A DNA stretch of 64,000 nucleotides from an uncultured Ruminiclostridium sp. (GCA_947630685.1 CANRII010000001.1:199-64198), one strand, 5' to 3'. Positions 9,443 to 30,763 are shown, counted from the first letter of the stretch. Program-made: numbers and translations. Notes: generated by a model not told the origin, from the letters alone.

Positions 9443-9518
9443 TAAATATATATGTCCGGCATTTCCTCTGAACCTAGGGATATCGGCATATTCTTTGACC
9501 CGGTTGGAGGTATCTTCT

Positions 9519-10256
9519 ATGCGTATTGCGATTTGCGACGATGAGCAGCACGAGCGCGAACGGCTTGAACAAGCGCTGCAAGGCTGTGACGCCGCGTACA
9601 GCGCGGAAAAATTTGCCGACGGAGCTTCTTTGTTGGATGCGACAAAAAAATCCCCTCCGTTCGATATTGCGTTTTTGGACATATATATGCCCGGCGAAAA
9701 CGGCATAGATATAGCAAAAATACTGCGGCAGATATCCCCCGATACCGGCATTGTATTTGTGACTACCAGCAGAGAGCACGCCGTGGACGCGTTTTCTCTT
9801 TACGCCCTGCACTATCTGGTAAAGCCCGCTACGACAGACGGGATAGCGGAGGCGTTACACCGTCTTAATCAGTCCCGCCGCGAACAAAGAGAACGCATTA
9901 CCCTTACTGTAGGTGCGGAAAGGCACACGGTGTTTCTCGATCAGATATGCTTATTGCAAAACGATAATCACGCGGTGAATGTAACGCTGTCCGACGGGCG
10001 CAGCCTTAAGGTCTGGATGTCGCTGGGCGAGATGGAAAAGAAAATGAATAAGAACTTTCTTAAGATAAACCGCGGTATAATCGTCAATATGGATTATATC
10101 GAACAGATGAGGACAGACGTCTGCGTTATGCGCAGCGGGATAAGACTGCCAATCGCGGTAAGACAGAGCGCCGTGATACGCGCGGCGTATGATAACTATG
10201 TGTTCGACCGGCTCGCCGGACGAAAAAACCTTACGGCAAAGGAGCCTAGACCATGA
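9519..10256 (+). CDS. LytTR family response regulator
   Basis: MRIAICDDE, FLDIYM (phospho-Asp), YLVKP, C-terminal FLKINRGIIVNMDYI LytTR domain; GGAGG RBS before ATG 9519. Confidence 0.92.
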   Translation: MRIAICDDEQHERERLEQALQGCDAAYSAEKFADGASLLDATKKSPPFDIAFLDIYMPGENGIDIAKILRQISPDTGIVFVTTSREHAVDAFSLYALHYLVKPATTDGIAEALHRLNQSRREQRERITLTVGAERHTVFLDQICLLQNDNHAVNVTLSDGRSLKVWMSLGEMEKKMNKNFLKINRGIIVNMDYIEQMRTDVCVMRSGIRLPIAVRQSAVIRAAYDNYVFDRLAGRKNLTAKEPRP

Positions 10257-14085: not shown

Positions 14086-14304
14086 TCAAATATACATAAA
14101 CGTACTTCTTCCTCCGGCGACATTTTCAAGCGCTTCATCGGAAAGCTCCGTGCCGGAACGCAGCGTATCGTACAGCTCTTTGGCCTTTTCCTCGGAAAGC
14201 TCAAAGCCGTCTTCCTTTGCCAAAGCTATAAGCTCCTCCGGCGAGTTTGCTTTGTTAAGCTTTTGCAAAAGCTCCTCTTTAGTCATAATAGTATGTTCAG
14301 CCAT
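14086..14304 (-). CDS. Nif11-like leader double-glycine precursor peptide P1
   Basis: Leader ends LSDEALENVAGG; core RSTFMYI. Confidence 0.85.
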   Translation of the reverse strand: MAEHTIMTKEELLQKLNKANSPEELIALAKEDGFELSEEKAKELYDTLRSGTELSDEALENVAGGRSTFMYI

Positions 14305-14354
14305 TTTCGCTTTCCTCCTTTAGATAGGTTTTTGAAGCAAAGGCGAAAAATCGA

Positions 14355-14651
14355 TCACCCTTCCGACCATAACGTTTCGGTGAAAAATTTATCGACTGCT
14401 TTAACGCCTTTTTCAATACCCTTTGCTATATCCTTCCAGAAATCAAGGCAGGAATATCCGCCCGCAACTCCTTCGAGCGCGTCGTCGGAAAGCTCGCCCT
14501 CGGCGTGCAGCGTATCGTACAGCTCTTTGGCCTTTTCCTCGGAAAGCTCAAAGCCGTCTTCCTTTGCCAAAGCTACAAGCTCCTCCGGCGAGTTTGCTTT
14601 GTTCAGCTTTTGCATAAACTCCTCTTTAGTCATAATAGTCTGTTCAGCCAT
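14355..14651 (-). CDS. Nif11-like leader precursor P2
   Basis: LSDDALEGVAGG; core YSCLDFWKDIAKGIEKGVKAVDKFFTETLWSEG. Confidence 0.88.
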   Translation of the reverse strand: MAEQTIMTKEEFMQKLNKANSPEELVALAKEDGFELSEEKAKELYDTLHAEGELSDDALEGVAGGYSCLDFWKDIAKGIEKGVKAVDKFFTETLWSEG

Positions 14652-14682
14652 TTTTTATTATCCTCTTCCGCTGTCTTAAAGC

Positions 14683-15078
14683 TCAAGACCAAGTGCGTTT
14701 GCAATCACCGCAGTAATATTTTTGGGTCTTCTCGCTATACGCTGTATTTTTGCGCGAATGGCAGTAGGGGCAGTCTATGCCCTGAGTAACGTCCCTGAAC
14801 GCTTCGGGTATCGTTTCGGTGAAAAATTTACCTATACTCTCAACGCCCTTTGCTATATCTTTCCAGAAATCAAGGCAGGAATATCCGCCCGCAACTCCCT
14901 CGAGCGCGTCGTCGGGAAGCTCGCCCTCGGCGTGCAGCGTATCATATAGTTTTTCGGAGTCTTCCACGGAAAGCTCGAAGCCGTCTTCCTTTGCCAAAGC
15001 TATAAGCTCCTCCGGCGAGTTTGCTTTGTTGAGCTTTTGCATAAACTCCTCTTTAGTCATAATAGTCTGTTCAGCCAT
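14683..15078 (-). CDS. Nif11-like leader precursor P3 (helix plus CxxC..CxxC core)
   Basis: Core YSCLDFWKDIAKG...CPYC-16aa-CGDC. Confidence 0.88.
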   Translation of the reverse strand: MAEQTIMTKEEFMQKLNKANSPEELIALAKEDGFELSVEDSEKLYDTLHAEGELPDDALEGVAGGYSCLDFWKDIAKGVESIGKFFTETIPEAFRDVTQGIDCPYCHSRKNTAYSEKTQKYYCGDCKRTWS

Positions 15079-15109
15079 TTTTGTTATCTCCTTTCAAAAT
15101 TGTCGGCAG

Positions 15110-15340
15110 TTAAACGAGAGTACGGAACGGACCTATACGGTCGCCGCCTCCTCCTCCGAGCCAGTATCCGCCCGCAACGCTTTCAAGCTGTTCATCGGTC
15201 AGCTCGCCGCCGCTCAGCTGCTCGAAAAGCTCTTTTGCCTTTTCGGGAGTCATTTCGATCCCGTTTTCCTTAGCAAGCGCGAGGATATCATCAGCGGATC
15301 TTACATCTTTCAGCTTTGCTAAAAATTCTTCCTTGTTCAT
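15110..15340 (-). CDS. Nif11-like leader precursor P4
   Basis: LTDEQLESVAGG; core YWLGGGGGDRIGPFRTLV. Confidence 0.88.
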   Translation of the reverse strand: MNKEEFLAKLKDVRSADDILALAKENGIEMTPEKAKELFEQLSGGELTDEQLESVAGGYWLGGGGGDRIGPFRTLV

Positions 15341-15386
15341 ATTTTCTCCTTTTACAACTAGCGATCTGATATTATCAGCGGACTTG

Positions 15387-15629
15387 TTAATAATTTATTA
15401 ATTTCACTCCGCTCATGCTCTCTATTATTTTAATTATCTCATCATCCATACTCCAGCCGCCGGCAACGTTTTGGAGCTGATCATCGGATAACTCGACCGA
15501 GTTTAATTTGCCGAAAAGCTCCTGTGCTTTGTCGGGAGCAATTTCAATGCCGTTTTCTTTGGCAAGAGCGATAATATCATCAGCGGACTTTGCACCTTTC
15601 AGCTTGGAAATAAATTCTTCCTTGTTCAT
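15387..15629 (-). CDS. Nif11-like leader precursor P5
   Basis: LSDDQLQNVAGG; core WSMDDEIIKIIESMSGVKLINY. Confidence 0.88.
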   Translation of the reverse strand: MNKEEFISKLKGAKSADDIIALAKENGIEIAPDKAQELFGKLNSVELSDDQLQNVAGGWSMDDEIIKIIESMSGVKLINY

Positions 15630-15774
15630 TTGTTTAAGCTCCTTTCAAGGGGGCAGATCAGAATAGTAGTTCCTTTATTCTCTTCTTTAATTTGTCCTTC
15701 AAATCCCCGCCTGCGACTTTGTCAAGTTCCTCGTCGGAAAGCTCGCAGTTTGAATTTATCTGATCAAACAGCTC
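15601..15774. repeat. 174-nt exact direct repeat (second copy 16330..16503)
   Basis: Spans the 3' half of P6/P9, the spacer and the first codons of the next precursor (P5/P8). Confidence 0.9.
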
Positions 15775-15882
15775 TTTTGCCTTTTCGGGGGTTAGCTCAA
15801 CACAGTTTTCCCTTGCAAGTACTAGAATATCGTCAGCAGATTTTGCTTCTTTTAGCTTGGCGATAAGTTCTTCATTGTTCAT
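15658..15882 (-). CDS. Nif11-like leader precursor P6
   Basis: LSDEELDKVAGG; core DLKDKLKKRIKELLF. Confidence 0.88.
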   Translation of the reverse strand: MNNEELIAKLKEAKSADDILVLARENCVELTPEKAKELFDQINSNCELSDEELDKVAGGDLKDKLKKRIKELLF

Positions 15883-15906
15883 GTGTTTGCCTCTTTCGTA
15901 AAAATT

Positions 15907-16132
15907 TTATTTTCCAAAAAGGCTACCGAACCACTCTTTGACTGTGTCAACTATGCCGCCCCCGGAAACAGTATCAAGCTGATCGTCGGATAACTCGACC
16001 GAGTTCATACTGTTGAAAATCTCTTGTGCCTTATCGGGGGGGTACGTCAACGCCGGCTTCTTTTGCCAACGCAATAATATCGTCGGCAGATTTTGCTGTT
16101 TTCAGATTTGCAATAAATTCTTCCTTAGTCAT
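15907..16132 (-). pseudogene. Nif11-like leader precursor P7, +1 frameshift in a C7 tract (absent from the ORF track)
   Basis: 226 nt from ATG to TAA. Removing one base from the run at 16036-16042 gives MTKEEFIANLK...LSDDQLDTVSGG-GIVDTVKEWFGSLFGK (74 aa); AAAGGAG RBS upstream. Confidence 0.85.
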
Positions 16133-16160
16133 GTCATTTGCTCCTTTAGCTTATCAATGA

Positions 16161-16358
16161 TCAATGGTATGTCCAGATGCTCATGCCGCCCGCAACGTTT
16201 TCTAACTGCTCATCGGAAAGCTCGCCGCCGCTTAGCTGCTCGAAAAGCTCTTCTGCCTTTTCGGGAGTCATTTCGATCCCGTTTTCCTTAGCAAGAGCGA
16301 GGATATCGTCAGCGGACTTTGCCAATTTAAGCTTGGAAATAAATTCTTCCTTGTTCAT
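16161..16358 (-). CDS. Nif11-like leader precursor P8
   Basis: LSDEQLENVAGG; core MSIWTYH. Confidence 0.88.
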   Translation of the reverse strand: MNKEEFISKLKLAKSADDILALAKENGIEMTPEKAEELFEQLSGGELSDEQLENVAGGMSIWTYH

Positions 16359-16386
16359 TTGTTTAAGCTCCTTTCAAGGGGGCAGA

Positions 16387-16611
16387 TCAGAATAGTAGTT
16401 CCTTTATTCTCTTCTTTAATTTGTCCTTCAAATCCCCGCCTGCGACTTTGTCAAGTTCCTCGTCGGAAAGCTCGCAGTTTGAATTTATCTGATCAAACAG
16501 CTCCTGTGCCTTTTCGGGAGCAATTTCAATGCCGCTTTCATTAGCAAGCGCGATAATATCGTCGGCGGATTTTACGCCTTTAAGCCTTGCTAAAAATTCT
16601 TCCTTGTTCAT
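16387..16611 (-). CDS. Nif11-like leader precursor P9
   Basis: Core DLKDKLKKRIKELLF, identical to P6, on a different leader N-half. Confidence 0.88.
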   Translation of the reverse strand: MNKEEFLARLKGVKSADDIIALANESGIEIAPEKAQELFDQINSNCELSDEELDKVAGGDLKDKLKKRIKELLF

Positions 16612-16646
16612 ATCATTTGCTCCTTTAGTTGATCAATGATCAATGA

Positions 16647-16844
16647 TCAATGGTATGTCCAGATGCTCATGCCGCCCGCGACGTTTTCCAGCTGCTCGTC
16701 GGAAAGCTCATTGCCGCTCATCTGCTCGAAAAGCTCTTTCGCCTTGTCGGGGGTCATCTCAACGCCGTTTTCCTTTGCAAGCGCTAGAATATCATCAGCG
16801 GATTTTGCATCTTTCAGCTTGGCTAAAAATTCTTCCTTGTTCAT
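16647..16844 (-). CDS. Nif11-like leader precursor P10
   Basis: Core MSIWTYH. Confidence 0.88.
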   Translation of the reverse strand: MNKEEFLAKLKDAKSADDILALAKENGVEMTPDKAKELFEQMSGNELSDEQLENVAGGMSIWTYH

Positions 16845-16872
16845 ATCATTTGCTCCTTTAGTTGATCAATGA

Positions 16873-17070
16873 TCAATGGTATGTCCAGATGCTCATGCCG
16901 CCCGCGACGTTTTCCAGCTGCTCGTCGGAAAGCTCATTGCCGCTCAGCTGCTCGAAAAGCTCTTTTGCCTTATCGGTAGTCATTTCTATCCCGTTTTCCT
17001 TAGCAAGCGCGATAATATCGTCAGCGGATTTTACGCCTTTCAGCTTGGCTAAAAAATCTTCCTTTTTCAT
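16873..17070 (-). CDS. Nif11-like leader precursor P11
   Basis: Start reassigned to MKKEDF (ATG 17070) by homology with its siblings; core MSIWTYH. Confidence 0.85.
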   Translation of the reverse strand: MKKEDFLAKLKGVKSADDIIALAKENGIEMTTDKAKELFEQLSGNELSDEQLENVAGGMSIWTYH

Positions 17071-17092
17071 AACATCAGCCTCATTTCGGATT

Positions 17093-17326
17093 TTAATCGT
17101 TATTGTTTGGAAACGGGATAATAAAGTCTTTTTCCCAAATAATGCGGCTGCCGCCGGCAACATTGTCAAGCTCGTCGTCGGACATTTCGCCGCTTGCGGT
17201 TATCCGCTCGAAAAGCTCCTTTGCCTTATCGGGAGTTATCTCTATCCCGTTTTCTTTAGCAAGCGCGATAATATCATCGACGGATTTTACGCCTTTCAGC
17301 TTGGCTAAAAAATCTTCCTTGTTCAT
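17093..17326 (-). CDS. Nif11-like leader precursor P12
   Basis: Start MNKEDF (ATG 17326) after AAAGGAG; core SRIIWEKDFIIPFPNNND. Confidence 0.85.
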   Translation of the reverse strand: MNKEDFLAKLKGVKSVDDIIALAKENGIEITPDKAKELFERITASGEMSDDELDNVAGGSRIIWEKDFIIPFPNNND

Positions 17327-17399
17327 GTTAAGCTCCTTTCGTAAGGTGGGTGGCATACGGGCGTCAGCCGAAAAGGCATCGTCCCGTATGCCTGAACTT

Positions 17400-17627
17400 T
17401 TAGTATTTATACACCGCGATCCATACGTCCGGACCTAAAAGATCGGCAAGGTCTTTTCTTCCGCCCGCAACATTGTCAAGCTCGTCGTCGGATAATTCGT
17501 TTATCTTGTCGAAAAGCTCCTTTGCCTTATCGGGAGCGATCTCTAAGCCGTTTTCTTTTGCAAGAGCGATAACGTCATCGACGGACTTTGCATTCGTCAG
17601 CTTTTTGATAAATTCTTCCTTGTTCAT
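17400..17627 (-). CDS. Nif11-like leader precursor P13
   Basis: LSDDELDNVAGG; core RKDLADLLGPDVWIAVYKY. Confidence 0.88.
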   Translation of the reverse strand: MNKEEFIKKLTNAKSVDDVIALAKENGLEIAPDKAKELFDKINELSDDELDNVAGGRKDLADLLGPDVWIAVYKY

Positions 17628-17655
17628 AAGTTTGACCCTCTCTTTTAATAAGTCG

Positions 17656-17901
17656 TTAAAGTTGGATCTTTATGATCTGTCCGTGACCCTCCGCATAACA
17701 GCAGTCTTCGCAGTTATAACCGCTGGTGCCGCCGGAACGGATATATACTATCCTCTTTGAACCGCAGTTCGGACAGCCGTTCGCCCAACTTTTTATATAT
17801 TCGGGAGAACCCTCTTTCGGAAGCGACGTGTCATTCGATCCGCCCGAAACGCTTTCAAGCTGGTCGTCGAGAAGCTCCGCGTTTTTATCTGATCTTTCCA
17901 T
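17656..17901 (-). CDS. Short-leader double-glycine precursor P14 (CxxC..CxxC core)
   Basis: 21-aa leader ending LLDDQLESVSGG; core contains CPNC-17aa-CEDC. Confidence 0.82.
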   Translation of the reverse strand: MERSDKNAELLDDQLESVSGGSNDTSLPKEGSPEYIKSWANGCPNCGSKRIVYIRSGGTSGYNCEDCCYAEGHGQIIKIQL

Positions 17902-17923
17902 AGTAATTCCTCCTTAAGCCGCT

Positions 17924-18286
17924 TTAATCCTTCTTAGTCATAGATGATACGGCTGCGCTCGTGGAAACTTGTGCTAAAGACTTTGTAAAGTCCGCGAAGC
18001 CCTCGAAATATTCGGGTATGTCCTTTGTGAAGAAGTCCTTTACATCCTCTGTAAAGAATTTATCTATAGACTTGAAAACGTCGGTGAGCCAGCTGCCGCC
18101 GGAAACGCCCTCAAGCTCATCGTCGGAAAGCTCGCCCTCAGCGTGCATGGAATCAAATAATTTCTGCGCGTTTTCCGGACTTAACTCCGCGTCGTACACC
18201 TTAGCAAACTCTATCAGCTCCTCCGGGGACTTCGCACTCATTAACTGAGCCTGAAATTCTTCCTTAGTGAATACTTGCTCTTCCAT
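17924..18286 (-). CDS. Nif11-like leader precursor P15
   Basis: LSDDELEGVSGG; core SWLTDVFKSIDKFFTEDVKDFFTKDIPEYF... Confidence 0.88.
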   Translation of the reverse strand: MEEQVFTKEEFQAQLMSAKSPEELIEFAKVYDAELSPENAQKLFDSMHAEGELSDDELEGVSGGSWLTDVFKSIDKFFTEDVKDFFTKDIPEYFEGFADFTKSLAQVSTSAAVSSMTKKD

Positions 18287-18328
18287 GGTGATTATCCTCC
18301 TTTATCGACCGTAAATTGGGGTCGTTTT

Positions 18329-18691
18329 TTACATTAAGCCTAAACCTTTTGCCGCCTCGCCCACTATGACTTTAGCGGTAGTTTCATACGCATCCGGTAA
18401 TGTTTCGGTAAAGAATTTGGGTACGTCCTTTGTGAAGAAGTCCTTTACATCCTCTGTAAAGAATTTATCTATAGACTTAAAAGCGTCGGTGAGCCAGCAG
18501 CCGCCGGAAACGCCCTCAAGCTGATCGTCGGAAAGCTCGCCCTCGACGTGCATAGAATCAAACAATTTCTGCGCGTTTTCCGGACTTAACTCCGCGTCGT
18601 ACACCTTAGCAAACTCTATCAGCTCCTCCGGGGACTTCGCACTCATTAACTGAGCCTGAAATTCTTCCTTAGTGAATACTTGCTCTTCCAT
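18329..18691 (-). CDS. Nif11-like leader precursor P16
   Basis: Core CWLTDAFKSIDKFFTEDVKDFFTKDVPKFFTETLPDA... Confidence 0.88.
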   Translation of the reverse strand: MEEQVFTKEEFQAQLMSAKSPEELIEFAKVYDAELSPENAQKLFDSMHVEGELSDDQLEGVSGGCWLTDAFKSIDKFFTEDVKDFFTKDVPKFFTETLPDAYETTAKVIVGEAAKGLGLM

Positions 18692-18733
18692 GGTGATTAT
18701 CCTCCTTTATCGACCGTAAATTGGGGTCGTTTT

Positions 18734-19099
18734 TTACATTAAGCCTAAACCTTTTGCCGCCTCGCCCACTATGACTTTAGCGGTAGTTTCATACGCATCC
18801 GGTAATGTTTCGGTAAAGAATTCGGGTACGTCCTTTGTGAAGAAGTCCTTTACATCTTTGGTAAAGAATTTATCTATAGACTTAAAAGCGTCGGTGAGCC
18901 AGCAGCCGCCGGACACGCCCTCAAGCTGATCGTCGGAAAGCTCTCCCTCGACGTGCATGGAATCAAACAATTTCTGCGCGTTTTCCGGGCTTAACTCCGC
19001 GTCGTACACCTTAGCGAACTCTATCAGCTCCTCCGGGGATTTTGCGCTCATTAACTTCTCCTGAAATTCTTCCCTGGTGAGTGTTCTTGCCTCTTCCAT
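18734..19099 (-). CDS. Nif11-like leader precursor P17
   Basis: Near-duplicate of P16 (2 core substitutions). Confidence 0.88.
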   Translation of the reverse strand: MEEARTLTREEFQEKLMSAKSPEELIEFAKVYDAELSPENAQKLFDSMHVEGELSDDQLEGVSGGCWLTDAFKSIDKFFTKDVKDFFTKDVPEFFTETLPDAYETTAKVIVGEAAKGLGLM

Positions 19100-19153
19100 G
19101 TGATTATCCTCCTTTATAGACCGTAAATTTTTATGGGGCGTTTTTGCCCAAAA

Positions 19154-19441
19154 TTATTCAAAAACGTGTCCGCAGAACTTACATACATAATGATACGCCT
19201 TTGTAGGAAAGCCCTTTGGTACAAGCCGGGAATCGGTCACCTGCTCTATCTCAATATCATATTTGCCGCAATACATACATCTTGACGGCTTTTCGGGAAT
19301 AGCGCTGAGCGGCGTGCTTGAATCAGAACCGTATATTACTTTTCCGAACGGCGTTTGCATTTCAAACCACATACCGCTGCCGCCCGACACCGTTTCAAGC
19401 TCTTCGTCGGAAAGCTCGTTCCTCTTTTCCTCTTTGCTCAT
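19154..19441 (-). CDS. Short-leader double-glycine precursor P18 (CxxC..CxxC core)
   Basis: 21-aa leader ending LSDEELETVSGG; core contains CMYC-28aa-CKFC. Confidence 0.82.
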   Translation of the reverse strand: MSKEEKRNELSDEELETVSGGSGMWFEMQTPFGKVIYGSDSSTPLSAIPEKPSRCMYCGKYDIEIEQVTDSRLVPKGFPTKAYHYVCKFCGHVFE

Positions 19442-19456
19442 AATTATCCCTTTCTA

Positions 19457-19846
19457 TTATGATTTTACAAGCTTGCCGCAGTGTTTGCACCTGATCTTTT
19501 GGACGCCGAATTGCCATTCTATCGTAAAGCCTTCGCGTGAACCGCACCACTGGCAATCAGCGCCGTAGAAAATATCTTTGAATTTGTCGCTTATTGCATC
19601 ACCTAATGATTCAAACGTTTCTTTCACGCTTTTTAAAAAGCTGCTTAAGCTTCCTCCCGCTACGCTTTCAAGCTCATCGTCGGAAAGCTCTCCCTCGGCG
19701 TGCAGAGCATCAAACAATTTCTGCGCGTCTTCCGGGCTCAGTTCGAGGTTGCATTCATTAGCGAACGCTATCAGATCCTCCGGAGACTTTGCTTTCTTTA
19801 ACAGCTCCTTTATTTCTTCATCGGTGATTTTTTTCGCTTCTTCCAT
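19457..19846 (-). CDS. Nif11-like leader precursor P19 (helix plus CxxC..CxxC core)
   Basis: Core SLSSFLKSVKETF...CQWC-18aa-CKHC. Confidence 0.88.
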   Translation of the reverse strand: MEEAKKITDEEIKELLKKAKSPEDLIAFANECNLELSPEDAQKLFDALHAEGELSDDELESVAGGSLSSFLKSVKETFESLGDAISDKFKDIFYGADCQWCGSREGFTIEWQFGVQKIRCKHCGKLVKS

Positions 19847-19946
19847 AGTAAATTATCCTCCTTTATCGACCGTAAATTTTTTGGGGTCGTTTTTGCTTGT
19901 TTTTTTGCCGTATCGGCGAAATTAAACCACTATCTGCCCGTAAATC

Positions 19947-20309
19947 TCAGTTTTTCTTGGTCTTTATCACATACTGGCAGTTGCCGCAAATGGTTTTTAT
20001 AACTCCCTTGTCGCTCTGCTGGTAGCTCTTGCGCGAACCGCACCTCGGGCAATCCGCACCTACAAACAGATCAGCTATTTTGTCGCCGAGATTCTTAAAG
20101 AAGTCTGTAAAAGCGTTTCCGCCCGCAACATCCTCAAGCTGCTCGTCGGCAAGCTCGCCCTCAGAATGAAGTGCGGCGAACATGGCCTTAGCGTCCTGCT
20201 CGCTTATGGTCACTCCGTTGCCATCCGCGATAGCGATAAGCTCGTCGGGAGACTTTGCCGCCTTGATCTTAGCAAGTATCTCCTCGTTGGTTATTGTTTT
20301 CTCTTCCAT
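19947..20309 (-). CDS. Nif11-like leader precursor P20 (helix plus CxxC..CxxC core)
   Basis: Core NAFTDFFKNLGDKIADLF...CPRC-17aa-CGNC. Confidence 0.88.
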   Translation of the reverse strand: MEEKTITNEEILAKIKAAKSPDELIAIADGNGVTISEQDAKAMFAALHSEGELADEQLEDVAGGNAFTDFFKNLGDKIADLFVGADCPRCGSRKSYQQSDKGVIKTICGNCQYVIKTKKN

Positions 20310-20364
20310 GTTTTTCCTCCTTTATAATATTTAACTGTTTATTTTTAATGCTTGAAACAGCATT

Positions 20365-20799
20365 TTAATGTAACCACGTATAGCCGCAGTTGCAGCATTT
20401 ATAGTTATACTGACCGCCCGCCTGGGCAGATACGCCAAGCTCTTCTTTAGTGTTTATTGAGCCGCAGCTGGGGCATTTTACATATTTTAGCAGCCTGTCT
20501 ATACCCTCGCCCGCTAGCTTAAACGCTTCCGGCACATCTTTCGTGAATACTTTTTCTACGGCTTTAGCCGCTTTTTTTATTCCCTCTCCTATGTCGCAGA
20601 AGATGCATCCGCCCGAAACCTCAGCAAGCTCATCGTCGGAAAGCTCGCCCATAGCCATCGCGCTTTCATACATCTTCTTTGCGGTCTCCTCACTTACGGT
20701 AACGCCGTTTTCTTTAGCAAGCGCCATTACCCCCTCGGGAGAACCCGCCTCTCTGAATTTTGCAAACAGTTCTTCTTGGCTTATAGTTTTTTCTTCCAT
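20365..20799 (-). CDS. Nif11-like leader precursor P21 (helix plus CxxC..CxxC core)
   Basis: Core CIFCDIGEGIKK...CPSC-22aa-CCNC (80 aa). Confidence 0.88.
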   Translation of the reverse strand: MEEKTISQEELFAKFREAGSPEGVMALAKENGVTVSEETAKKMYESAMAMGELSDDELAEVSGGCIFCDIGEGIKKAAKAVEKVFTKDVPEAFKLAGEGIDRLLKYVKCPSCGSINTKEELGVSAQAGGQYNYKCCNCGYTWLH

Positions 20800-20824: not shown

Positions 20825-22093
20825 TTACATCTTTAAGTTAGGACAAACAAGCGGCTCTTCGTCGTCCGCGGTCGCCTGTATGCCTACCTGTCTTAACTGC
20901 TCCGCAAAGCCGTCCGACAATGCGTTTCCCGCAAATTCCTGTAAAAACGTAATGCAGAAGTTGCCGCCCACGGCGTTTACTTCAAATAATACATGGCTCG
21001 CGGCAGGGTCTACATAGGTAAATATCGACTTTATATAAGGCTCTAACGCTCCGAGCCGCTGTATATGCACATAGCTTACCGTGAGGTCTACGAACACCTT
21101 GTTCATCTGCGACGATTTTTGAAACGCCTCATGCACCGCGTCGTAATCGCCGAGCGCTAATATCTTTTGTTCCTTTTGCAATCGGTTCTTCACCGCGTTC
21201 AGCATATATTCCTGTGAGGACTGGTGATCCATCATCTGACGGGTAACGCCGCACAGCTTATCCATCGGCATATTTCTCATCTGCTCGGTATAATTCAGCA
21301 CGATATTGCCCAGCACGTTGTTATGCGCTTTCGGAGCTTTTACCGCGTCGCGGTAGTTTTTCATAAGTATCGTTCTGAACGGGTGATTAAGCTTTTCGCA
21401 AAGGTCGAATACCGTTTTCGCCAAGAGATTGGACATCACTATCGCGGGAGTGCCGCCGTTTGCCTTGACGTACTCCATGAATTCGTCCTCCGGCACCGAC
21501 ATTCTGCGCGCCGTTTTACAAACGGGACAGCCGGGAAGTATCTCCTCCCATTGCACGGCGGGCTCGACAGCCTGCGGATTGTGCTTAGGAGCTTCTTCCT
21601 TTGCGGGCTCTATATCAAGATACGGGTCTTTTCGTTCCTCCTCGGTGACAGGATCGTCTAATGTTCTGATACCGTCCGCGGGAAAGCTCTTTTTATATTT
21701 TTCGGTTATGTAGTAATACAGCGTAGTTTTGATAAACTCCAGTATACCCGTTTCGTCGGTTATAGAATGTACTATATCAAAATATACCGTGCTGCCCTCA
21801 TAATTTACCGCAAGCGCGTGCTCGTTCGACTGCTCCGACAGCAGCAGTACCGGAGTTATCCCCTCGGTTATAACTATCTGCTTATCGTTAGGCAGTACCG
21901 AATGTAAAAGCTCGCCCTCTTCGCGGACAAATTTTACCGAATAGTAATCGTAACGCTTTATCGCAATATCCACCGCCTTGCGCAAAGCGGCGGGGTCTAT
22001 ATTTTCGTTAAGCTCCACCGCGGTTCTTACGGTGTGCTGTACGTTTTCGTCGGAACGGTAAAATCCCGATATCCCCGACGGATTGTTCTTCAT
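20825..22093 (-). CDS. CoA-dependent acyltransferase, condensation/CAT fold (alcohol acetyltransferase-like)
   Basis: IDPAALRKAVDIAIKRY N-terminal motif, HSITDETG (HxxxD catalytic motif), FIKTTLYYY, 422 aa. These resemble the clostridial AATase/condensation family. Confidence 0.7.
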   Translation of the reverse strand: MKNNPSGISGFYRSDENVQHTVRTAVELNENIDPAALRKAVDIAIKRYDYYSVKFVREEGELLHSVLPNDKQIVITEGITPVLLLSEQSNEHALAVNYEGSTVYFDIVHSITDETGILEFIKTTLYYYITEKYKKSFPADGIRTLDDPVTEEERKDPYLDIEPAKEEAPKHNPQAVEPAVQWEEILPGCPVCKTARRMSVPEDEFMEYVKANGGTPAIVMSNLLAKTVFDLCEKLNHPFRTILMKNYRDAVKAPKAHNNVLGNIVLNYTEQMRNMPMDKLCGVTRQMMDHQSSQEYMLNAVKNRLQKEQKILALGDYDAVHEAFQKSSQMNKVFVDLTVSYVHIQRLGALEPYIKSIFTYVDPAASHVLFEVNAVGGNFCITFLQEFAGNALSDGFAEQLRQVGIQATADDEEPLVCPNLKM

Positions 22094-22136: not shown

Positions 22137-22628
22137 TTAGTCGGTATATCCCGCTTCTTCTAAAAAACGCCTTAGCTTTTTTAATGCGCTGTACTGTAAA
22201 AATCTCACGTTGGAATAGCTTACGCCGACGCGCTCCGCCGTTTCCTTTGAGGAAAGTCCGTGATAAAATCTAAGCACTATTATCTTTCGTTCTCTGTCCG
22301 GCAATTGTTCTAACGCTAACGCTAAGGATTCAAGGTTCTCGTTTGTAAGTATCCTGTCGTCCTGAGCCGGTATAAGCTCGATATCTTCGGCTGTAGGCTC
22401 GCGGGAGAGCTTTCTGTAATAATCGTTTACCGCGTTTCTCGTTATCGCGTACAGCCATGTGCCTATCGCGCCGCGCGACGGGTCGTAGCTTTCAAGAGCG
22501 GAAATGGCGTTCAAAAACACCTGATGCACTATATCGGCTCTGTCATGCTCGTTTTGCACATGGGAGCATATATATCTTTCTACCTTTTCGCGGTAACCGT
22601 TATACAGCTCTTCGGGGGTGATGGTCAT
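22137..22628 (-). CDS. ECF-subfamily RNA polymerase sigma factor
   Basis: Region 2 DIVHQVFL...YDPSRGAIGTWLYAITRN; region 4 LPDRERKIIVLRFYHGLSSKETAERVG. Confidence 0.92.
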   Translation of the reverse strand: MTITPEELYNGYREKVERYICSHVQNEHDRADIVHQVFLNAISALESYDPSRGAIGTWLYAITRNAVNDYYRKLSREPTAEDIELIPAQDDRILTNENLESLALALEQLPDRERKIIVLRFYHGLSSKETAERVGVSYSNVRFLQYSALKKLRRFLEEAGYTD

Positions 22629-22813
22629 GGCTTTTCATCGCCTCCCGTTTCGGCGCGCCACGTTTCATTCTCTCCCGCGGCGTTAAGCTCAAGGTCGCTG
22701 TCGTCCAGAGGTACGCCCATGTCCTCCGTGCGCACTATCCTTTCAAGGCGTTCGTTCTTTTGGAACTTTTGAAAATCGAACAATGCGCGCAGCAGTTTTT
22801 CGCTCTTATCCAT
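22625..22813 (-). CDS. Small protein with double-glycine-leader-like motif, translationally coupled to the ECF sigma
   Basis: 62 aa, GGAGG RBS, LFDFQKFQKNERL and LDDSDLELNAAG; ATGA overlap with the sigma start. Confidence 0.75.
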   Translation of the reverse strand: MDKSEKLLRALFDFQKFQKNERLERIVRTEDMGVPLDDSDLELNAAGENETWRAETGGDEKP

Positions 22814-22897: not shown

Positions 22898-25105
22898 TCA
22901 GCTGTTTACCGGCTCTTTGTCGTCAAGGCGCTGACGCGCTACCAGCTCGGCAAATTTTCCGTTTAAGGCTATAAGCTCGTCGTAAGTGCCCTCCTCGGCG
23001 ATCTTGCCCTTTTCAAGATATATTATCCTGTCGCATTGCTTTATGGTGGAAAGCCTGTGCGCTATCACTATCCTTGTGCATTTAAGGCTGTTCAGCGAAT
23101 CGGAAACGGTCTTTTGCGTGATGTTGTCCAGCGCGCTGGTCGCCTCGTCGAACATAAGTATCTTAGGCCTCGGCGCTATCGCTCTGGCTATCATAAGGCG
23201 CTGACGCTGACCGCCGGAAACGCCGCCGCTGCCCTCGGAGATGATAGTGTTCATTCCCATAGGCATTCTGCGTATGTCCTCCGCTATGCCGGAAAGCTCC
23301 GCCGCCTCCCACGCTTCGTCCATGGTGAGCCACGGCGCGGAAATGGTGATGTTAGAGAATATATCCCCCTGGAACAGCTTGCCGTTTTGCATTACCGTGC
23401 CTATACTGCGGCGCAATGATTTAAGGTCAAGGCTGGAAATATCCTTGCCGTCGTAGTATACCGAGCCTTTCTGCGGAGTTTCAAAGCCCAGCATTACTCT
23501 CATAAGCGTGGATTTACCGCAGCCAGTAGTGCCTACTATCGCGACATACTGACCCGGCCGTATCTTAAGCGACAGATCGTCAAGGACGTTGGGCATGCTG
23601 TCGCTGTAGCGGAACGAAATGTTGTTCAGCTCTATCCCGCCGGAAAGCCTTGTCACTACTTCCTTGCCCTCGGATATTTCGGGTGTAGCGTCAAGTATCG
23701 GCTTTGCCATATCCAATACCGGCTTGATATTCGCCGCGGTGAGCGCTATCCCCGCAAGGGACATGAACGCGCCGGACACCATGCCGTACGCGGTATTGAA
23801 CGCGTAGTAATCCGCTACCGACACGTTGCTTACCACCGCGAGATAATACATAACGAATGTTCCCGCAAGGCTTATAATAGTGGTAAATACCGAGTTGTAT
23901 CTTATTAAAGTCGGCGGGTCGTACAGCAGCTTAGCCTCTTTTGAGTACAGGCTGCCCCATTTGGCGAACGCGCGCCGCTCCGCACCGGACAGCTTTATCT
24001 TCTGGACGCCGGTTATCAGCGCATAATCAAGACCGCTGACCTTAGCGCCGTGCTCCATCTGCTGCTTTGATATTTTCATCTGAGCCAATGCGCTTATCAC
24101 CGAAAACAGCACCGTAACGATTATTATTATCAGCGCGGGAACCACCAGCGTCGGCGCAAACGCGAATATCTGCGCTATATACACCAGCGAGAACACCGAG
24201 GTAAGACCGGTAGAAAGCACCGTATCCACCAGCATGGAGCATATCATATTTATGTACTGCGTTCTTACCGACAGCTCGCCGGAGCTGTATTTTTTGAAAA
24301 ACGACGCGGGTAGTGACATGACGCGCGCCATGGTCGCCGCCTGCACGGTAACGTCCATTTTCGTGCGTATCCTCGCCATAATAAGCGATTTTATCGTGCT
24401 TATCATCAGTGTGGATATTGACAGGCATATCATAAACACCGCTATAGACATAAGCAGCGTAAGATCCTTGTTATCCACTACCAGACCGAAAAGCAGCTGA
24501 TTGAGCTTAGGCGTCAGCATACCTACAACGGTAGCGGCCAGCGTCACCGTTGCCGCTATCAGATAATCCGATACCGATAAGATACCGGCTATGTATTTTA
24601 GCAGGCTGCCTATACTTAACTTCTTTAGCGGGAACGGCTTGTAAAAGGCGACAGCGTCCTCCTCAAACAGCCCCTCGTTCTTTTTGGATATCTTGACGGT
24701 CTTACCGGTCGTGCGGTCGTAGTATGAATACCCCGACATACCGCTGGGTATCAATGCGGCAACGCTGCCGTCCGACTTCATCACCGCGAGCATAGCTCCG
24801 AACGCGTCCTTATACCACCCTTTTTCAAGGGTGACGTTTCTGCGCATGATACCGTGCGGCCGCATGAGATATTCAAGCTGCTCGTTGGTATCCTTTATCG
24901 TATCCGGTACGTCTTTTGATCTCGTTTTGATATGATAATAGCTTAGTATCTCGTCGATAGCGTCCTTAGCGCGGCTCTTATCGTCGGCGAACGCGTCGGA
25001 TATATGCGTTCCGGTCACCGCGTCGGATATGCTTATAAACGCCTCCTCGAAGGTGCTGAGGTCTTTTTCCTTTCGCTGTTTTATCTGTTCATCGAACCAA
25101 CCCAT
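22898..25105 (-). CDS. NHLM/NHLP bacteriocin export ABC transporter, permease/ATPase subunit (TIGR03797-like)
   Basis: Degenerate peptidase-like N-domain without catalytic Cys, ABC membrane domain, GTTGCGKS Walker A, VSGGQRQR, FDEATSALD. Confidence 0.9.
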   Translation of the reverse strand: MGWFDEQIKQRKEKDLSTFEEAFISISDAVTGTHISDAFADDKSRAKDAIDEILSYYHIKTRSKDVPDTIKDTNEQLEYLMRPHGIMRRNVTLEKGWYKDAFGAMLAVMKSDGSVAALIPSGMSGYSYYDRTTGKTVKISKKNEGLFEEDAVAFYKPFPLKKLSIGSLLKYIAGILSVSDYLIAATVTLAATVVGMLTPKLNQLLFGLVVDNKDLTLLMSIAVFMICLSISTLMISTIKSLIMARIRTKMDVTVQAATMARVMSLPASFFKKYSSGELSVRTQYINMICSMLVDTVLSTGLTSVFSLVYIAQIFAFAPTLVVPALIIIIVTVLFSVISALAQMKISKQQMEHGAKVSGLDYALITGVQKIKLSGAERRAFAKWGSLYSKEAKLLYDPPTLIRYNSVFTTIISLAGTFVMYYLAVVSNVSVADYYAFNTAYGMVSGAFMSLAGIALTAANIKPVLDMAKPILDATPEISEGKEVVTRLSGGIELNNISFRYSDSMPNVLDDLSLKIRPGQYVAIVGTTGCGKSTLMRVMLGFETPQKGSVYYDGKDISSLDLKSLRRSIGTVMQNGKLFQGDIFSNITISAPWLTMDEAWEAAELSGIAEDIRRMPMGMNTIISEGSGGVSGGQRQRLMIARAIAPRPKILMFDEATSALDNITQKTVSDSLNSLKCTRIVIAHRLSTIKQCDRIIYLEKGKIAEEGTYDELIALNGKFAELVARQRLDDKEPVNS

Positions 25106-25117
25106 ACAAACACCCCC

Positions 25118-27310
25118 TTATTCATTGGAAACGAGCCTGGTATAAAGCCCGTTCGCGGCGTACAGCTCTTCATGCGTGCCGCGTTCAACGACTTTTCCAT
25201 TATCCAAAACGATTATCTCGTCGCAGTCGCGTATGGTGGAAAGTCTGTGTGCGACGACTATGCAGGTTATTCCCCTGTCCTTTATGGAGCGTACCACGTC
25301 GTACTCGGTCTTTGCGTCCAGCGCGCTGGTCGCCTCGTCCAGGATTATTATAGTGGGATCCTGGGCGAGCACGCGGGCTATCTCCATTCTCTGACGCTGA
25401 CCGCCGGAGAAGTCCTTGCCGTTTTCGGTAATGACGTAATCATATCCGCCGTCGCGCTGCATTATGTCGGAATGTATCTGCGCGTCCTTTGCGGCGAGTA
25501 TCATTTCAAAATCTTCAATGGAGCTGTCCCACATCTTTATATTGTTTCTTATAGAGTCCTCAAACAGGATTATATCCTGATCCACTACCGCCAAAGAGCC
25601 GGTAAACACGCTGCGGTCGATATCCTTTATCGGCTTGCCGTCAAAAAGTATCTCGCCGCTCCACGGCTGATACAGTCCGGAGATGAGCTTTGAAAGGGTG
25701 GATTTTCCACAGCCGGAGCCTCCCACGAAAGCAACGCGGCTGCCCGGCTTTAGGGTAAGGCTGAAATCCTCTATCAGCGGATCGTCAAGACGTGAATAGC
25801 CGAACGTAACGTTCTTTAATTCCACGGTGCCGCTTAGCTTGCTGTACTCCGCGTCGTCGGAGGCGGTATCGTCGTCCCTGTAGTTTACGTCGGTGGGATA
25901 TTCCATAACGTCCTCGATACGCTCCATCTGGGTGCGCATCTCCTGTATGGTCTGACTTGCCGAGATAAGCGTCATGGCAGGCTCGGTAAAGGACGCTAAA
26001 AATCCCTGGAACGCCATTACCATACCTACGGTGAAATTGCCCTGTATAGTAAACAGCACGCCGAGTATCAGCACTATTGTATTGGTAAGCTGAGAAACAA
26101 GTCCCGGCACCATGCCGAGGTATTCGTTCAGCCTTTCGTATCTTACCTGCTGGGTGTTCACGCTCGCCTGATAGCCCGACCATTTTTCAAAATAGCCGTT
26201 CTCCGCGCCGCTGGACTTGATAGTTTCTATCATCTCTATACCCGCGACCGTCGCGCCTGCGAGCTTGCCCTCGTCGCGCATCTGGATACGGGTGATATTG
26301 ACGCGCTTTTTAGAGATTATCTGCGACATTATAAGATTGAGCAATATAGAAGCCACACCGACTATCGTCAATATCCAGCTGTAGCGTATCATTACCACGA
26401 GATAGAATATCATCATCGCCGTATTCAGCACCAGCGGCGCAAAGGTATTTACAAGGCTGCTCGCTATGCCGGAATTAGTGCTTTGCCTTTGCTGGATATC
26501 CCCCGCCATTCGCTGGGAGAAAAACTCCATCGGCATGCGCAGTATCTTCCATAAAAACGACGTATCGCCCACTACCGCTAATTTTCCCTCTATCATTCGG
26601 TTGGATTTTGCGGTGACGTATGCGACGACGATCTGCGCCAGCGAAAATACCGCTAACAGCGCAAGGAACGGATAGAACCATTCTATATCCGTATGCGTCA
26701 AAAGTCTATCCAGAAATACCCGTGAAAACGCGGGCTGTATAATGCCGAGCAGCGACGTTATTATCGTAGTGATAACAGTAAACGCGATGGCTACTCCCGC
26801 GCCTATAAGGCGTTTTCTCGCAAAGGACATCACGCTTTTCGGCTTTCCGCCCGGCTCGAAATTCTCGGTCGGCTCGAACATCAGGCAGATACCGGTAAAG
26901 CTCTTATCAAAGGTTTCCATAGAAACGGTATAATTGCCTTTTGCCGGATCGTTAAGCACGGCTTTATCGCCCTTAAAGCCGCAAAGCACCACAAAGTGAT
27001 TGAAATTCCAATGGACTATGCAGGGGAATTTTCCTTTTTCCTTGAGCTGCTCCGGCTCGTAGCGGTAGCCCTTTGCCGTCATTCCGTAGCTGCGGGCGGC
27101 CTTAAGTACGTTCTTAGCGCTGGAGCCGTCGCGGGACACGCCGCAGTCCGCGCGCACCTGCTCGAGCGGTATCCATTTTCCGTAATAGGCAAGGATCATG
27201 GTAAGCGCCGCCGCTCCGCATTCGAGCGCCTCCATCTGCATTACCACAGGCACCTTTGCCCAGCCTTTCGTTACCGGCGTATGCTGCTTTTTATCGAACA
27301 TCATGCGCAC
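25118..27310 (-). CDS. NHLM/NHLP bacteriocin export ABC transporter, C39 peptidase/permease/ATPase (TIGR03796-like)
   Basis: QMEALECGAA (Cys), HWNFNHF (His), NDPA (Asp), GGSGCGKS, FSGGQRQR. The start may be ATG 27304 or 27301. Confidence 0.93.
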   Translation of the reverse strand: MRMMFDKKQHTPVTKGWAKVPVVMQMEALECGAAALTMILAYYGKWIPLEQVRADCGVSRDGSSAKNVLKAARSYGMTAKGYRYEPEQLKEKGKFPCIVHWNFNHFVVLCGFKGDKAVLNDPAKGNYTVSMETFDKSFTGICLMFEPTENFEPGGKPKSVMSFARKRLIGAGVAIAFTVITTIITSLLGIIQPAFSRVFLDRLLTHTDIEWFYPFLALLAVFSLAQIVVAYVTAKSNRMIEGKLAVVGDTSFLWKILRMPMEFFSQRMAGDIQQRQSTNSGIASSLVNTFAPLVLNTAMMIFYLVVMIRYSWILTIVGVASILLNLIMSQIISKKRVNITRIQMRDEGKLAGATVAGIEMIETIKSSGAENGYFEKWSGYQASVNTQQVRYERLNEYLGMVPGLVSQLTNTIVLILGVLFTIQGNFTVGMVMAFQGFLASFTEPAMTLISASQTIQEMRTQMERIEDVMEYPTDVNYRDDDTASDDAEYSKLSGTVELKNVTFGYSRLDDPLIEDFSLTLKPGSRVAFVGGSGCGKSTLSKLISGLYQPWSGEILFDGKPIKDIDRSVFTGSLAVVDQDIILFEDSIRNNIKMWDSSIEDFEMILAAKDAQIHSDIMQRDGGYDYVITENGKDFSGGQRQRMEIARVLAQDPTIIILDEATSALDAKTEYDVVRSIKDRGITCIVVAHRLSTIRDCDEIIVLDNGKVVERGTHEELYAANGLYTRLVSNE

Positions 27311-27311
27311 C

Positions 27312-27833
27312 TCAATTAAACAAGAACATTATCGGAGAAATACTGTCGGTTATTATCTCCGCCTTATATGTGCCGCTGGGAAAAGAAGCGCCCAGCTTTA
27401 TCGGGTATACCCATTCGCCCTCCATAAGGTCAAAAGCGTGCATGGTATACTCGTTGAACGTGTTTTTATCCACCGTGATAGGCTCCTCGGAGATCTCCTC
27501 TATCGGGTATTCCTTGTTGTCTATCCTTACGGGATCGTCAAGAGATACCCGTTCTATATCCCCCTCTTTGACAAAACAGAACGCTATCTCGTCCATACCC
27601 GCTTCCTGCGCCTGCGGTACGAGGTCTTGGAGCCCTTGCACCGACAAAACGACGCATTCGACCTTGGTCTCTATCTTGCCTACCGCGCCCCATACGATAA
27701 ATCCTATCAGCAGGAGTATCACCGCGCCCAGCGTCAGCCAGATACCGGGACTGGTCACCCGTATGTAGTCGTTGAGCTGCTCCGGAGAGGAGACGCGCTC
27801 TATGCTCTTTTCTCTGAAAATATTGTTTGCCAT
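27312..27833 (-). CDS. NHLP bacteriocin system secretion accessory protein (short form, TIGR03794-like N-terminus)
   Basis: IFREKSIERVSSPEQLNDYIRVTSP followed by one TM helix. Confidence 0.85.
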   Translation of the reverse strand: MANNIFREKSIERVSSPEQLNDYIRVTSPGIWLTLGAVILLLIGFIVWGAVGKIETKVECVVLSVQGLQDLVPQAQEAGMDEIAFCFVKEGDIERVSLDDPVRIDNKEYPIEEISEEPITVDKNTFNEYTMHAFDLMEGEWVYPIKLGASFPSGTYKAEIITDSISPIMFLFN

Positions 27834-29391: not shown

Positions 29392-30369
29392 TCACAGATC
29401 GTTTTCCAGATACGCTTGTAATCTTGTTTGCACGTTCTTTTCCAGATTGCGGTAGAAAAATTGATAATCGTATAAATGATATATGCCGTCGGTGAAAATA
29501 TCCAATCCCGCGGGATAATCCGCAGGAGAAACGTCGGGGACCTTAAGCGCTCCTCTGCTGTCGTCGATATACGCTCCAGTAAGCGCGGGTATCTCGGTTT
29601 TTATATTGCCGTCGTAATCGGTAAAGCATGCGCCGAGGTTAAGCTCTTTATCGGCGGGAGTATTGTCCGTAGTCCAGTTCAGCGGGTTTATCGCAAGCGT
29701 TTTCGTTCCTTTAGGTATCATCAGAGAATCGTCGATATCCTCCGCCTCGCTGTTGAACGCAACGATAACGCCGGTATCGCTTTCACCCGAGGCAAATTTA
29801 AGCTGAGGATATTCTTCAAGCTCCTGCTCGGTGACGCGCCAGCCTATCGCATAGCACGCGACCAGCTGACTTTGCAGCTTCTCGTCGGTAAAGCGCTCTT
29901 TCAGCAGCCTTATGCACATATCCGCCCCTTGGGAAAAGCCCGCGAGTATTATCGGGCGGCCGTCGTTGAAATTGTCATAGTAATGATCAAACGACGCTTT
30001 TACGTCCTCAAAGGCGGTATCGAAATACTTATCCGCGCCGCTGTCTTCCATTTTGTAAACGTCCAGCGCCGCCTGACGGTAGTACGGCGCGAAAAAGCGG
30101 CATTCATCGTCGTATATGCCCTTTTCCATATTCGTAGCGCCGAGAAAGCTGGCTTTTGCGTCTTGGTCGGAAAGCGGCATGTTATGGATATCCTCCCCGC
30201 CCATATATACCGTCGGACAGATAAAAAATACGTCAGCGGGAAGATCAGTATCGCCGCTGCCGCAGTACGCCCAGTTTTCTTCGGCATGATAATCTACAGA
30301 CGCGCTCTCACAGCCGCAGAATAAAACGGCTGCAAAAACCAGCAAAGCAATAAGTTTTACTCTTTTCAT
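29392..30369 (-). CDS. DUF3089 alpha/beta-hydrolase lipoprotein
   Basis: Lipobox FCGC; ADVFFICPT, FAPYYRQ, GFSQG nucleophile elbow, INPLNW, HLYDYQFFY. Confidence 0.85.
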   Translation of the reverse strand: MKRVKLIALLVFAAVLFCGCESASVDYHAEENWAYCGSGDTDLPADVFFICPTVYMGGEDIHNMPLSDQDAKASFLGATNMEKGIYDDECRFFAPYYRQAALDVYKMEDSGADKYFDTAFEDVKASFDHYYDNFNDGRPIILAGFSQGADMCIRLLKERFTDEKLQSQLVACYAIGWRVTEQELEEYPQLKFASGESDTGVIVAFNSEAEDIDDSLMIPKGTKTLAINPLNWTTDNTPADKELNLGACFTDYDGNIKTEIPALTGAYIDDSRGALKVPDVSPADYPAGLDIFTDGIYHLYDYQFFYRNLEKNVQTRLQAYLENDL

Positions 30370-30423
30370 GCTCTTTCACGCTTTCTTAAAAATCATCCGT
30401 AAAACAACGTATAACTCAAATTA

Positions 30424-30452
30424 ATTATATCATCTTTTTACATTTTTTTCAA
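30424..30452 (-). promoter_or_regulatory. Sigma-A type promoter with extended -10 (drives DUF3089-cstA-export genes)
   Basis: Minus strand TTGAAA-17 nt-TATAAT with TGA before the -10. Confidence 0.75.
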
Positions 30453-30611
30453 TGTTGCCGTTATGACTTTTAGGTAATGAAGATTGACTTTTACGAAATT
30501 GTTAAAATCGTCTATATCAGCGGAAGATAAAATTTACCTCAAAAGTCTGCATATTTCGCGCACGATTGCCTAAAAGTCATATTTTATTACCTAAACGTCA
30601 ATAGTATGGGT

Positions 30612-30640
30612 TTGAAATGTCACTATAAAAGTGATATAAT
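30612..30640 (+). promoter_or_regulatory. Sigma-A type promoter with extended -10
   Basis: TTGAAA-17 nt-TATAAT with TGA before the -10; divergent from the promoter at 30424-30452. Confidence 0.75.
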
Positions 30641-30763
30641 TAGCTTGGATTATTGCGTTTAGGCGATAACTGAAAATAACGAGCAACAAATGCGGTATCT
30701 TCCGTATTTGTCGCATATAAAAGCGCGTTTATACAGCGCGAAATCAAGAAAAGGAGAAAACCA

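Follow-up and report, generated by a model that had tools for sequence, protein, structure and literature searches.

What does a single enzyme-like gene do when it stands inside a bacteriocin operon: does it modify the peptides encoded beside it, protect the cell from them, or share no more with them than a position on the chromosome? The question is raised by a 64,000-nucleotide stretch of DNA (hereafter the window) from an uncultured Ruminiclostridium sp. (GCA_947630685.1, CANRII010000001.1:199-64198), in which a gene for a 422-amino-acid (aa) protein, the target of this study, directly precedes 21 genes for Nif11-leader peptides. A first, sequence-only reading took the target for the tailoring enzyme of this peptide array and proposed that it O-, S- or N-acylates the cores near the new N-terminus, where Ser and Cys are enriched at positions +1 and +2, to give lipopeptides. 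Comparison of orthologous loci shows that maturation of the Nif11 array is not the dedicated function of the target, because selection keeps it after the exporter, the sigma factor gene and all the peptide genes have been deleted on both sides. Our tentative proposal, held with rather less than even confidence, is that the target is an acyl-thioester-dependent enzyme that gives immunity-type protection and is retained as an orphan by strains that no longer make the peptides. The genes of the operon are the following.

20825-22093, minus strand: target gene, encoding a free-standing protein with a predicted CAT/condensation fold, a putative acyl-thioester-dependent acyltransferase (open reading frame (ORF) call, AlphaFold2, Foldseek)
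21755-21769, minus strand: codons of the HxxxD motif, His109-Ser-Ile-Thr-Asp113 (HSITD)
14086-20799, minus strand: 21 Nif11-leader/Gly-Gly precursor genes, immediately 3' of the target
20365-20799, minus strand: first precursor gene after the target
22137-22628, minus strand: extracytoplasmic function (ECF)-type sigma-70 family factor, directly 5' of the target (Sigma70_r2/r4, TIGR02937)
22625-22813, minus strand: 62-aa ORF (orf62), which overlaps the sigma start and is conserved with the cassette
22898-25105, minus strand: ABC transporter without a peptidase domain
25118-27310, minus strand: C39 peptidase-ABC exporter (Peptidase_C39, 2e-36)
27312-27833, minus strand: short or truncated HlyD-like adaptor, the N-terminal part of TIGR03794
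27891-29339, minus strand: CstA-family transporter

The comparison set comprised 19 orthologous loci, namely the window and 18 species-representative loci (L008-L025) that form the true orthologue group and all come from rabbit-gut metagenome-assembled genomes (MAGs). Exporter, target and peptides occur together in nine of them (the window, L008, L010, L013-L015, L018, L024 and L025), and the sigma gene lies directly before the target in eight of these nine, the order sigma-target-peptides being kept down to 55% identity; in L010 the sigma gene has been replaced. One more locus, L009, combines the target with two peptides, so that peptides are found at 10/19 loci. In the other nine (L016, L017, L019, L023, the outgroup L020-L022, and L011 and L012 from Lachnospiraceae) the target stands without peptides or exporter. 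Absence of the cluster is a derived state and not the ancestral one, since remnants of the sigma gene sit before the target in L016, L017, L019 and L023: its last 45-70 nucleotides (nt) are fused to the end of cstA, directly before the ribosome-binding site (RBS) of the target. On the upstream side these scars have at least two distinct junctions, and on the downstream side the deletions end at three distinct points; in L016 the spacer and hairpin survive as far as the RBS of the first peptide gene. The sequence-only reading had suggested looking for a clade of array-linked homologues; in the protein tree, cluster-bearing and cluster-less orthologues are interspersed.

The target ORF is intact in all nine cluster-less loci. 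For pairs of cluster-less loci pN/pS is 0.14-0.46, with neutrality rejected (p 1e-3 to 1e-22), and for cluster-bearing pairs it is 0.08-0.18. That the gene persists for mere lack of time to decay is ruled out by these values well below 1 and by a dS of 0.09-0.36 among the cluster-less lineages. The possibility that the peptides are encoded elsewhere was likewise rejected, within MAG completeness, by searches of the whole genomes of the nine cluster-less species, which gave no confident Nif11 leader (seven without any match, two with weak partial matches, E ~3e-4) and no C39 domain in six of the nine. An enzyme that is kept intact and under purifying selection where no peptides are left does not behave as the tailoring enzyme of the array, and the proposal of Ser/Cys acylation fares no better from the other side: two congeners (G317, locus L033 on contig C3; G347, locus L034 on contig C1) carry the orthologous antiSigK-HlyD-C39ABC-ABC-orf62-sigma cassette together with Gly-Gly peptides and have no target orthologue at the cassette. 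In G317 only a 31%-identical paralogue was found, on another contig, and a search of G347 for target homologues gave no match at E <= 1e-10. Co-occurrence with precursors, decay after loss of the substrate and conserved Ser/Cys acceptors, all to be expected of a tailoring enzyme, were thus not what the loci display.

The gene is also mobile by itself. The two Lachnospiraceae copies lack peptides, exporter and CstA, and in L011 a serine recombinase and a transposase-type helix-turn-helix gene flank the target, showing that the target moved alone into Lachnospiraceae as an accessory, mobile gene; within its own genus an orthologue occurs in only 3/41 species. Because G317 and G347 have a response regulator-histidine kinase (RR-HK) pair, CstA and 5'-nucleotidase without the target, and because cstA is itself accessory in the genus, exporter, sigma, target and peptides behave as a single insert, placed between cstA and the 5'-nucleotidase gene, and the target is the piece that survives decay of the block.

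Several other traces of gain and loss lie in and around these loci. Only the C-terminal half of an RsbW-like anti-sigma kinase gene is left between the histidine kinase gene and cstA in L016 (8181-8414) and L019 (5112-5348), a further deletion scar showing that loss of the bacteriocin genes took the partner-switching module with it. In the sister clade (L013-L018, L025) a hairpin, GAAACCACGCAGGTGCGTTTC, is conserved ~60-100 nt past the target stop and before the first peptide gene; it is retained in the cluster-less L016, is absent from the 25-nt gap of the window, and may be a terminator or an RNA-processing element. In L010/L004 (CANQIB010000016.1) the C39-ABC gene is split into two ORFs of 278 and 463 aa, and 52-aa and 91-aa ORFs and a 186-aa Zeta_toxin-family gene take the place of orf62-sigma, which suggests a decaying exporter or a toxin-antitoxin insertion. 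Past the sigma gene, the G317 and G347 cassettes (L033, L034) hold a 95-aa ORF, then a zeta-toxin-like P-loop remnant, then a protein of 403 aa whose N-terminal half is methyltransferase-like and whose C-terminal domain is of the STAS type, and finally two Gly-Gly peptides; a 405-aa STAS protein is encoded directly upstream of the target in L006 and L009.

What kind of protein, then, is being retained? No match to the target was obtained in Pfam, NCBIfam or the PDB sequences (phmmer), and none of 55 family members matched the Pfam families Condensation, Transferase/BAHD, AATase, CAT or WES at E <= 0.01, the Pfam scan of these members giving two stray unrelated hits in one member each. A profile of the 55 sequences found a marginal PDB match to a "condensation domain protein" over the motif region (E 0.076). 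An AlphaFold2 model built on an alignment of 16 homologues (pLDDT 82, pTM 0.85) matched 238 PDB chains in Foldseek at E <= 1e-3, the top matches being the SrfA-C condensation (C) domain, TRI101, PapA5, HCT/BAHD enzymes and other C domains (E 1e-14 to 1e-11, TMq 0.46-0.63). The best 50 Foldseek matches were all of the CAT/condensation superfamily with no GNAT among them, and no Pfam Acetyltransf match was found. The fold named by the sequence-only reading, undetectable by sequence, is thus borne out by structure prediction: the target is confirmed, at the fold level only, as a predicted soluble, two-lobed member of the CAT/condensation superfamily. With PapA5, TRI101, BAHD enzymes and free-standing C domains of nonribosomal peptide synthetases it shares the two-lobed fold (TMq up to 0.63), a length of ~420 aa and the canonical HxxxD site, but it is only 10-15% identical to them and matches no curated hidden Markov model.

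The HSITD motif at residues 109-113, correctly read from the sequence at the outset, lies in the model between a strand (102-108) and a helix (114-133), in the canonical HHxxxDG place at the lobe interface. Its His is invariant in 20/20 orthologues and its Asp is lost in the outgroup only (HALIT); the residue that follows the Asp is Glu, Ala or Thr in the orthologue group and not Gly, and the consensus of the wider family is HxxxDG. By analogy with this fold, His109 would act as general base at the interface of the two lobes, and an acceptor hydroxyl, amine or thiol would attack an acyl thioester. The donor would most likely be acyl-CoA, because no carrier protein or ligase gene lies nearby.

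The setting of the target agrees with the first description of it. ORF calls place the gene between the ECF sigma gene, whose end is 43 nt from the target start codon, and the first precursor, which begins 25 nt past the target stop; the target has a strong RBS of its own (AAAGGGAGG), and a scan of both gaps found no terminator-like site on the minus strand. All 21 precursors are co-oriented, with Nif11-type leaders that end in a V[AS]GG cleavage motif. Apart from the target, the cluster consists of the HlyD-like, C39-ABC, second ABC, 62-aa ORF and sigma genes, and scans of the cluster returned no other enzyme gene, which leaves the target, as had been claimed, the only candidate for a tailoring enzyme. 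Pfam and NCBIfam scans of the cluster yielded no other immunity candidate either, and no acyl carrier protein, ligase or acyl-donor supply gene was found near the target. The protein has no signal peptide or transmembrane segment (maximum 19-residue hydropathy 1.13).

An immunity-type role would fit this combination of features. Encoded in the bacteriocin operon, the gene is kept by relatives that have lost the cluster, as is expected of an immunity gene. Its accessory, mobile nature, the independent recruitment of a second subfamily that occurs both in an export cassette and alone, and the copy number of family members in relatives also speak for this role. The protective enzyme of the locus would acylate, and thereby inactivate, peptides that reach the cytoplasm, or it might acylate a cell-envelope precursor and so shield the cell from damage by the amphipathic peptides. 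Strains that make no peptides but live among producers would keep the target as an "orphan immunity" gene, and in several of them it lies in one co-directional string behind a LytTR regulator/kinase pair and its putative binding box. Cytoplasmic acyltransferases that neutralize a toxic molecule, and whose genes are mobile and useful without the biosynthetic genes, offer a parallel to this proposed role. CAT and TRI101 are resistance enzymes of the CAT fold. MccE confers self-immunity through acetylation of processed microcin C (PMC6795089, PMC4010828); unlike the target, it is a GNAT acting on a nucleotide-peptide, whereas most Gly-Gly bacteriocins attack the membrane from the outside. In the streptococcal blp system, non-producing "cheater" genotypes have lost export or production yet retain the protective genes together with the LytTR regulator/kinase pair (PMC3171984), much as cluster-less relatives of the window keep the RR-HK pair and the target, although the blp immunity proteins are small membrane proteins and the target is a soluble protein of enzyme fold with a putative protective role.

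A number of observations weigh against this proposal. Class II immunity proteins are small and membrane-associated; the target is large, soluble and free of transmembrane segments. One enzyme would need to handle 18 very different cores, and the cassette of G317 and G347 does without an orthologue. The outgroup loci L020-L022 have the order CstA-target-DUF3089, with no regulator pair, no trace of a past peptide cluster and the motif Asp lost. Most wider-family members examined sit in unrelated contexts. All the relatives, finally, are incomplete MAGs, and the absence of peptides or C39 domains from them is not absolute.

The alternative that best survives, although we consider it unlikely, is an unrelated accessory acyltransferase with a small-molecule or lipid acceptor, which merely shares the variable slot between cstA and the 5'-nucleotidase gene with bacteriocin modules. 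The company of CstA speaks for it: cstA lies upstream of the target, directly or past the cassette, in the window and in 16/18 species-representative loci (exceptions L011 and L012), the 47%-identical outgroup included, and in G314 a pair of CAT-fold and CstA-like paralogues are adjacent. CstA does not need the target, as the RR-HK-CstA-5'-nucleotidase arrangement of G317 and G347 demonstrates, and the notion that the target is a housekeeping partner of CstA was rejected as the main explanation for the same reason and for the rarity of the gene in the genus. Predicted regulation likewise links the target to CstA, through the following features.

29392-30369, minus strand: DUF3089 lipoprotein gene, heading the co-directional gene string
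9414-11623, plus strand: LytTR response regulator gene (9414-10256) and GHKL (HATPase_c_5-type) kinase gene, a pair kept beside CstA and the target in cluster-less relatives
30464-30493, minus strand: LytTR-type direct repeat TAAAAGTCA-N12-TAAAAGTCA, 5' of the -35 of the promoter-like site that heads the DUF3089-CstA-...-target string
30571-30600, plus strand: second copy of the LytTR-type repeat, TAAAAGTCA-N12-TAAAAGTCA, 5' of the promoter-like site of the 5'-nucleotidase gene

Both divergent promoter-like sites, at 30370-30763, are strong and sigma-70-like (TTGAAA-17-TATAAT), with one copy of the repeat close to the 5' side of each -35. The adjacent response regulator (9414-10256) is likely to bind this repeat. 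A copy of the same box lies before the LytTR regulator gene in L006, L009, L016, L017, L019 and L023, and in the cluster-less genomes it heads a co-directional RR-HK-CstA-target string, which again favors an acceptor unrelated to the peptides.

The breadth of the family points in the same direction. An exhaustive HMMER search at E <= 1e-3 retrieved 764 representative clusters, the majority being free-standing proteins of ~420 aa, and a profile search placed the family in 153/301 genomes of the same bacterial family, where its members are mostly solitary genes and their contexts vary; the target thus belongs to a large family of Clostridia, and no Pfam or NCBIfam model was found for it. Its own genome carries a paralogue (contig C58:13730-14995, minus strand; 421 aa, HAITDG, 28% identical to the target) with its own upstream region, unrelated neighbors and no peptide gene near. 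The subfamily of this paralogue is very common in metagenomes (753 clusters of 90%-identity representatives at E <= 1e-5), the best 120 of the 753 being 56-81% identical, and the contexts of its relatives vary. Closest homologues lying mostly outside peptide clusters, which the sequence-only reading had named as counting against itself, are thus found in part: about half of the orthologues are so placed, and the wider family appears to be so in the few contexts examined. Copy number, which speaks rather for a protective role, reaches five family members per genome in relatives (G571). In G097 there are tandem arrays of three (L061, G097:C87:61-3876) and two (L062, G097:C10:57-2513) divergent CAT-fold paralogues with HxxVDGGG motifs; the L062 pair is preceded by a gene for a 626-aa STAS-domain protein, and STAS genes recur near family members in several genomes.

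Against an unrelated acceptor stand the place of the target between sigma and peptides, kept across lineages only 55% identical, and a second association with an export cassette that is hard to call coincidence. In G167 a divergent, 28%-identical homologue, also with HSITD, lies between the C39-ABC and second ABC genes with 18-nt gaps, and downstream follow four Gly-Gly peptides and a radical SAM (rSAM)/SPASM maturase. Among metagenomic relatives 75% identical to the G167 homologue, one (L063) lies in the same cassette and another (L064) stands by itself in unrelated surroundings. The family is thus shown to be recurrently linked to Gly-Gly peptide export cassettes, its second recruitment being independent of the first. 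A 71%-identical relative of the G167 homologue (L065) has an apparent frameshift, its match being in two adjacent pieces.

Facultative tailoring, in which the target would, ahead of export, O/S-acylate side chains close to the cleavage site in some precursors while a second substrate maintained selection, is considered improbable. Its operon position directly before the precursors, its retained catalytic His, the lack of another modifying enzyme in the cluster and the family member embedded in the cassette with an rSAM maturase all favor such activity, as does the composition of the cores. The earlier count of 15/21 window cores with Ser or Cys at +1 or +2 is exact, and 13/18 distinct cores are positive; with Ser+Cys at a background of 10% among the remaining core residues, ~19% of cores would have one at +1 or +2 by chance (p ~2e-6 by a naive binomial estimate). 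Duplicated genes inflate this figure, as had been cautioned: grouped by hand into ~10 core families, six are positive (hand-estimated p ~0.005), and since many cores are homologous the raw count overstates an enrichment that is nonetheless real. Among the three closest relatives 15/17 cores are positive. In the sister clade, with an identical sigma-target-peptide order, only 2/30 are, and the signal is carried largely by a few homologous families, the [CS]-hydrophobic-x-x-D amphipathic cores and the xSIWTYH heptapeptides. The enrichment is therefore a real, lineage-specific property of the peptides and not a conserved partner feature of the enzyme. Also telling against facultative tailoring are the double dissociation of enzyme and peptides, purifying selection where the substrate is gone, and the lack of acyl-donor supply genes nearby. 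Acylation of the new N-terminus is topologically unlikely, because the C39 domain would make that terminus during export and the enzyme, without signal peptide or transmembrane segment, would be cytoplasmic.

The cores and their possible maturation furnish some further observations. A nearly invariant core, GIVDT(I/V)K(H/E)W(V/F)GSLFG(R/K), is that of the first peptide past the target in all six sister-clade clusters (L013-L025), and because of this position and near-invariance the GIVDT-type core is a candidate pheromone or inducer; the copy in the window (15907-16074, minus strand) has a truncated leader, is 39 aa long with a different N-terminus and looks damaged. In six window cores the C-terminus carries CxxC...CxxC motifs. 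Genes for a 477-502-aa rSAM/SPASM enzyme adjoin separate arrays (L031, G347:C10; L032, G317:C11; L047, G167:C2), each of at most 10 Nif11-leader precursors whose C-terminal cores are rich in Cys; a hidden maturase of this kind was rejected for the genome of the window, in which the rSAM/SPASM enzyme of G347, G317 and G167 has no orthologue.

A non-catalytic or regulatory CAT-fold scaffold, partner of the ECF sigma factor or of STAS/partner-switching proteins, is very improbable, for although the target follows the ECF sigma gene directly, in the usual place of an anti-sigma gene, STAS-domain genes stand beside family members (L006/L009, G314, G097 contig C10) and at the cassette head in L047, and the outgroup has lost the motif Asp, the target is kept after deletion of sigma, His109 is invariant in the 20 orthologues and the family consensus retains HxxxDG.

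The protective role proposed here has to be set beside what is known of peptide acylation. The enzymes known to lipidate ribosomal peptides are GNATs (PMC13647313), in agreement with the sequence-only reading, and they include the selidamide enzymes KspN, PhaN and NpuN, the goadvionin enzyme GdvG, and the lipolanthine and lipoavitide enzymes of the peptides made by ribosomes and modified after translation (RiPPs) (PMC13647313, PMC8784127). These RiPP GNATs transfer acyl groups from thioesters and, like the target, are encoded in clusters with NHLP/Nif11-leader, Gly-Gly-cleaved precursors; they differ from it in fold, GNAT against CAT, and in that the target persists without any precursor. Since the known enzymes are GNATs, any peptide-directed activity of the target would be new. 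That it is the first CAT/condensation-fold acyltransferase to act on ribosomal Gly-Gly-leader peptides, by O/S-acylation of Ser/Cys, which would be a route to ribosomal lipopeptides outside the GNATs, or by disarming them for immunity, is an idea that we regard as somewhat doubtful.

The locus amounts to a natural experiment, in which independent deletions on either side of the target removed the exporter, sigma and peptide genes, ~12 kb in all, but left the target in place; these deletions mark it as the component of the system that is still useful to non-producers. For a Clostridial family present in about half of the sampled genomes of its bacterial family, the model provides a first structural assignment, at the level of predicted fold, and a candidate catalytic residue, His109. 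Should the target act on peptides, whether to tailor or to disarm them, the acylation of ribosomal peptides would have enzymes of a second fold beside the GNATs; and the immunity proposal, if true, could describe a bacteriocin immunity of gut Clostridia that is enzymatic and transferable.

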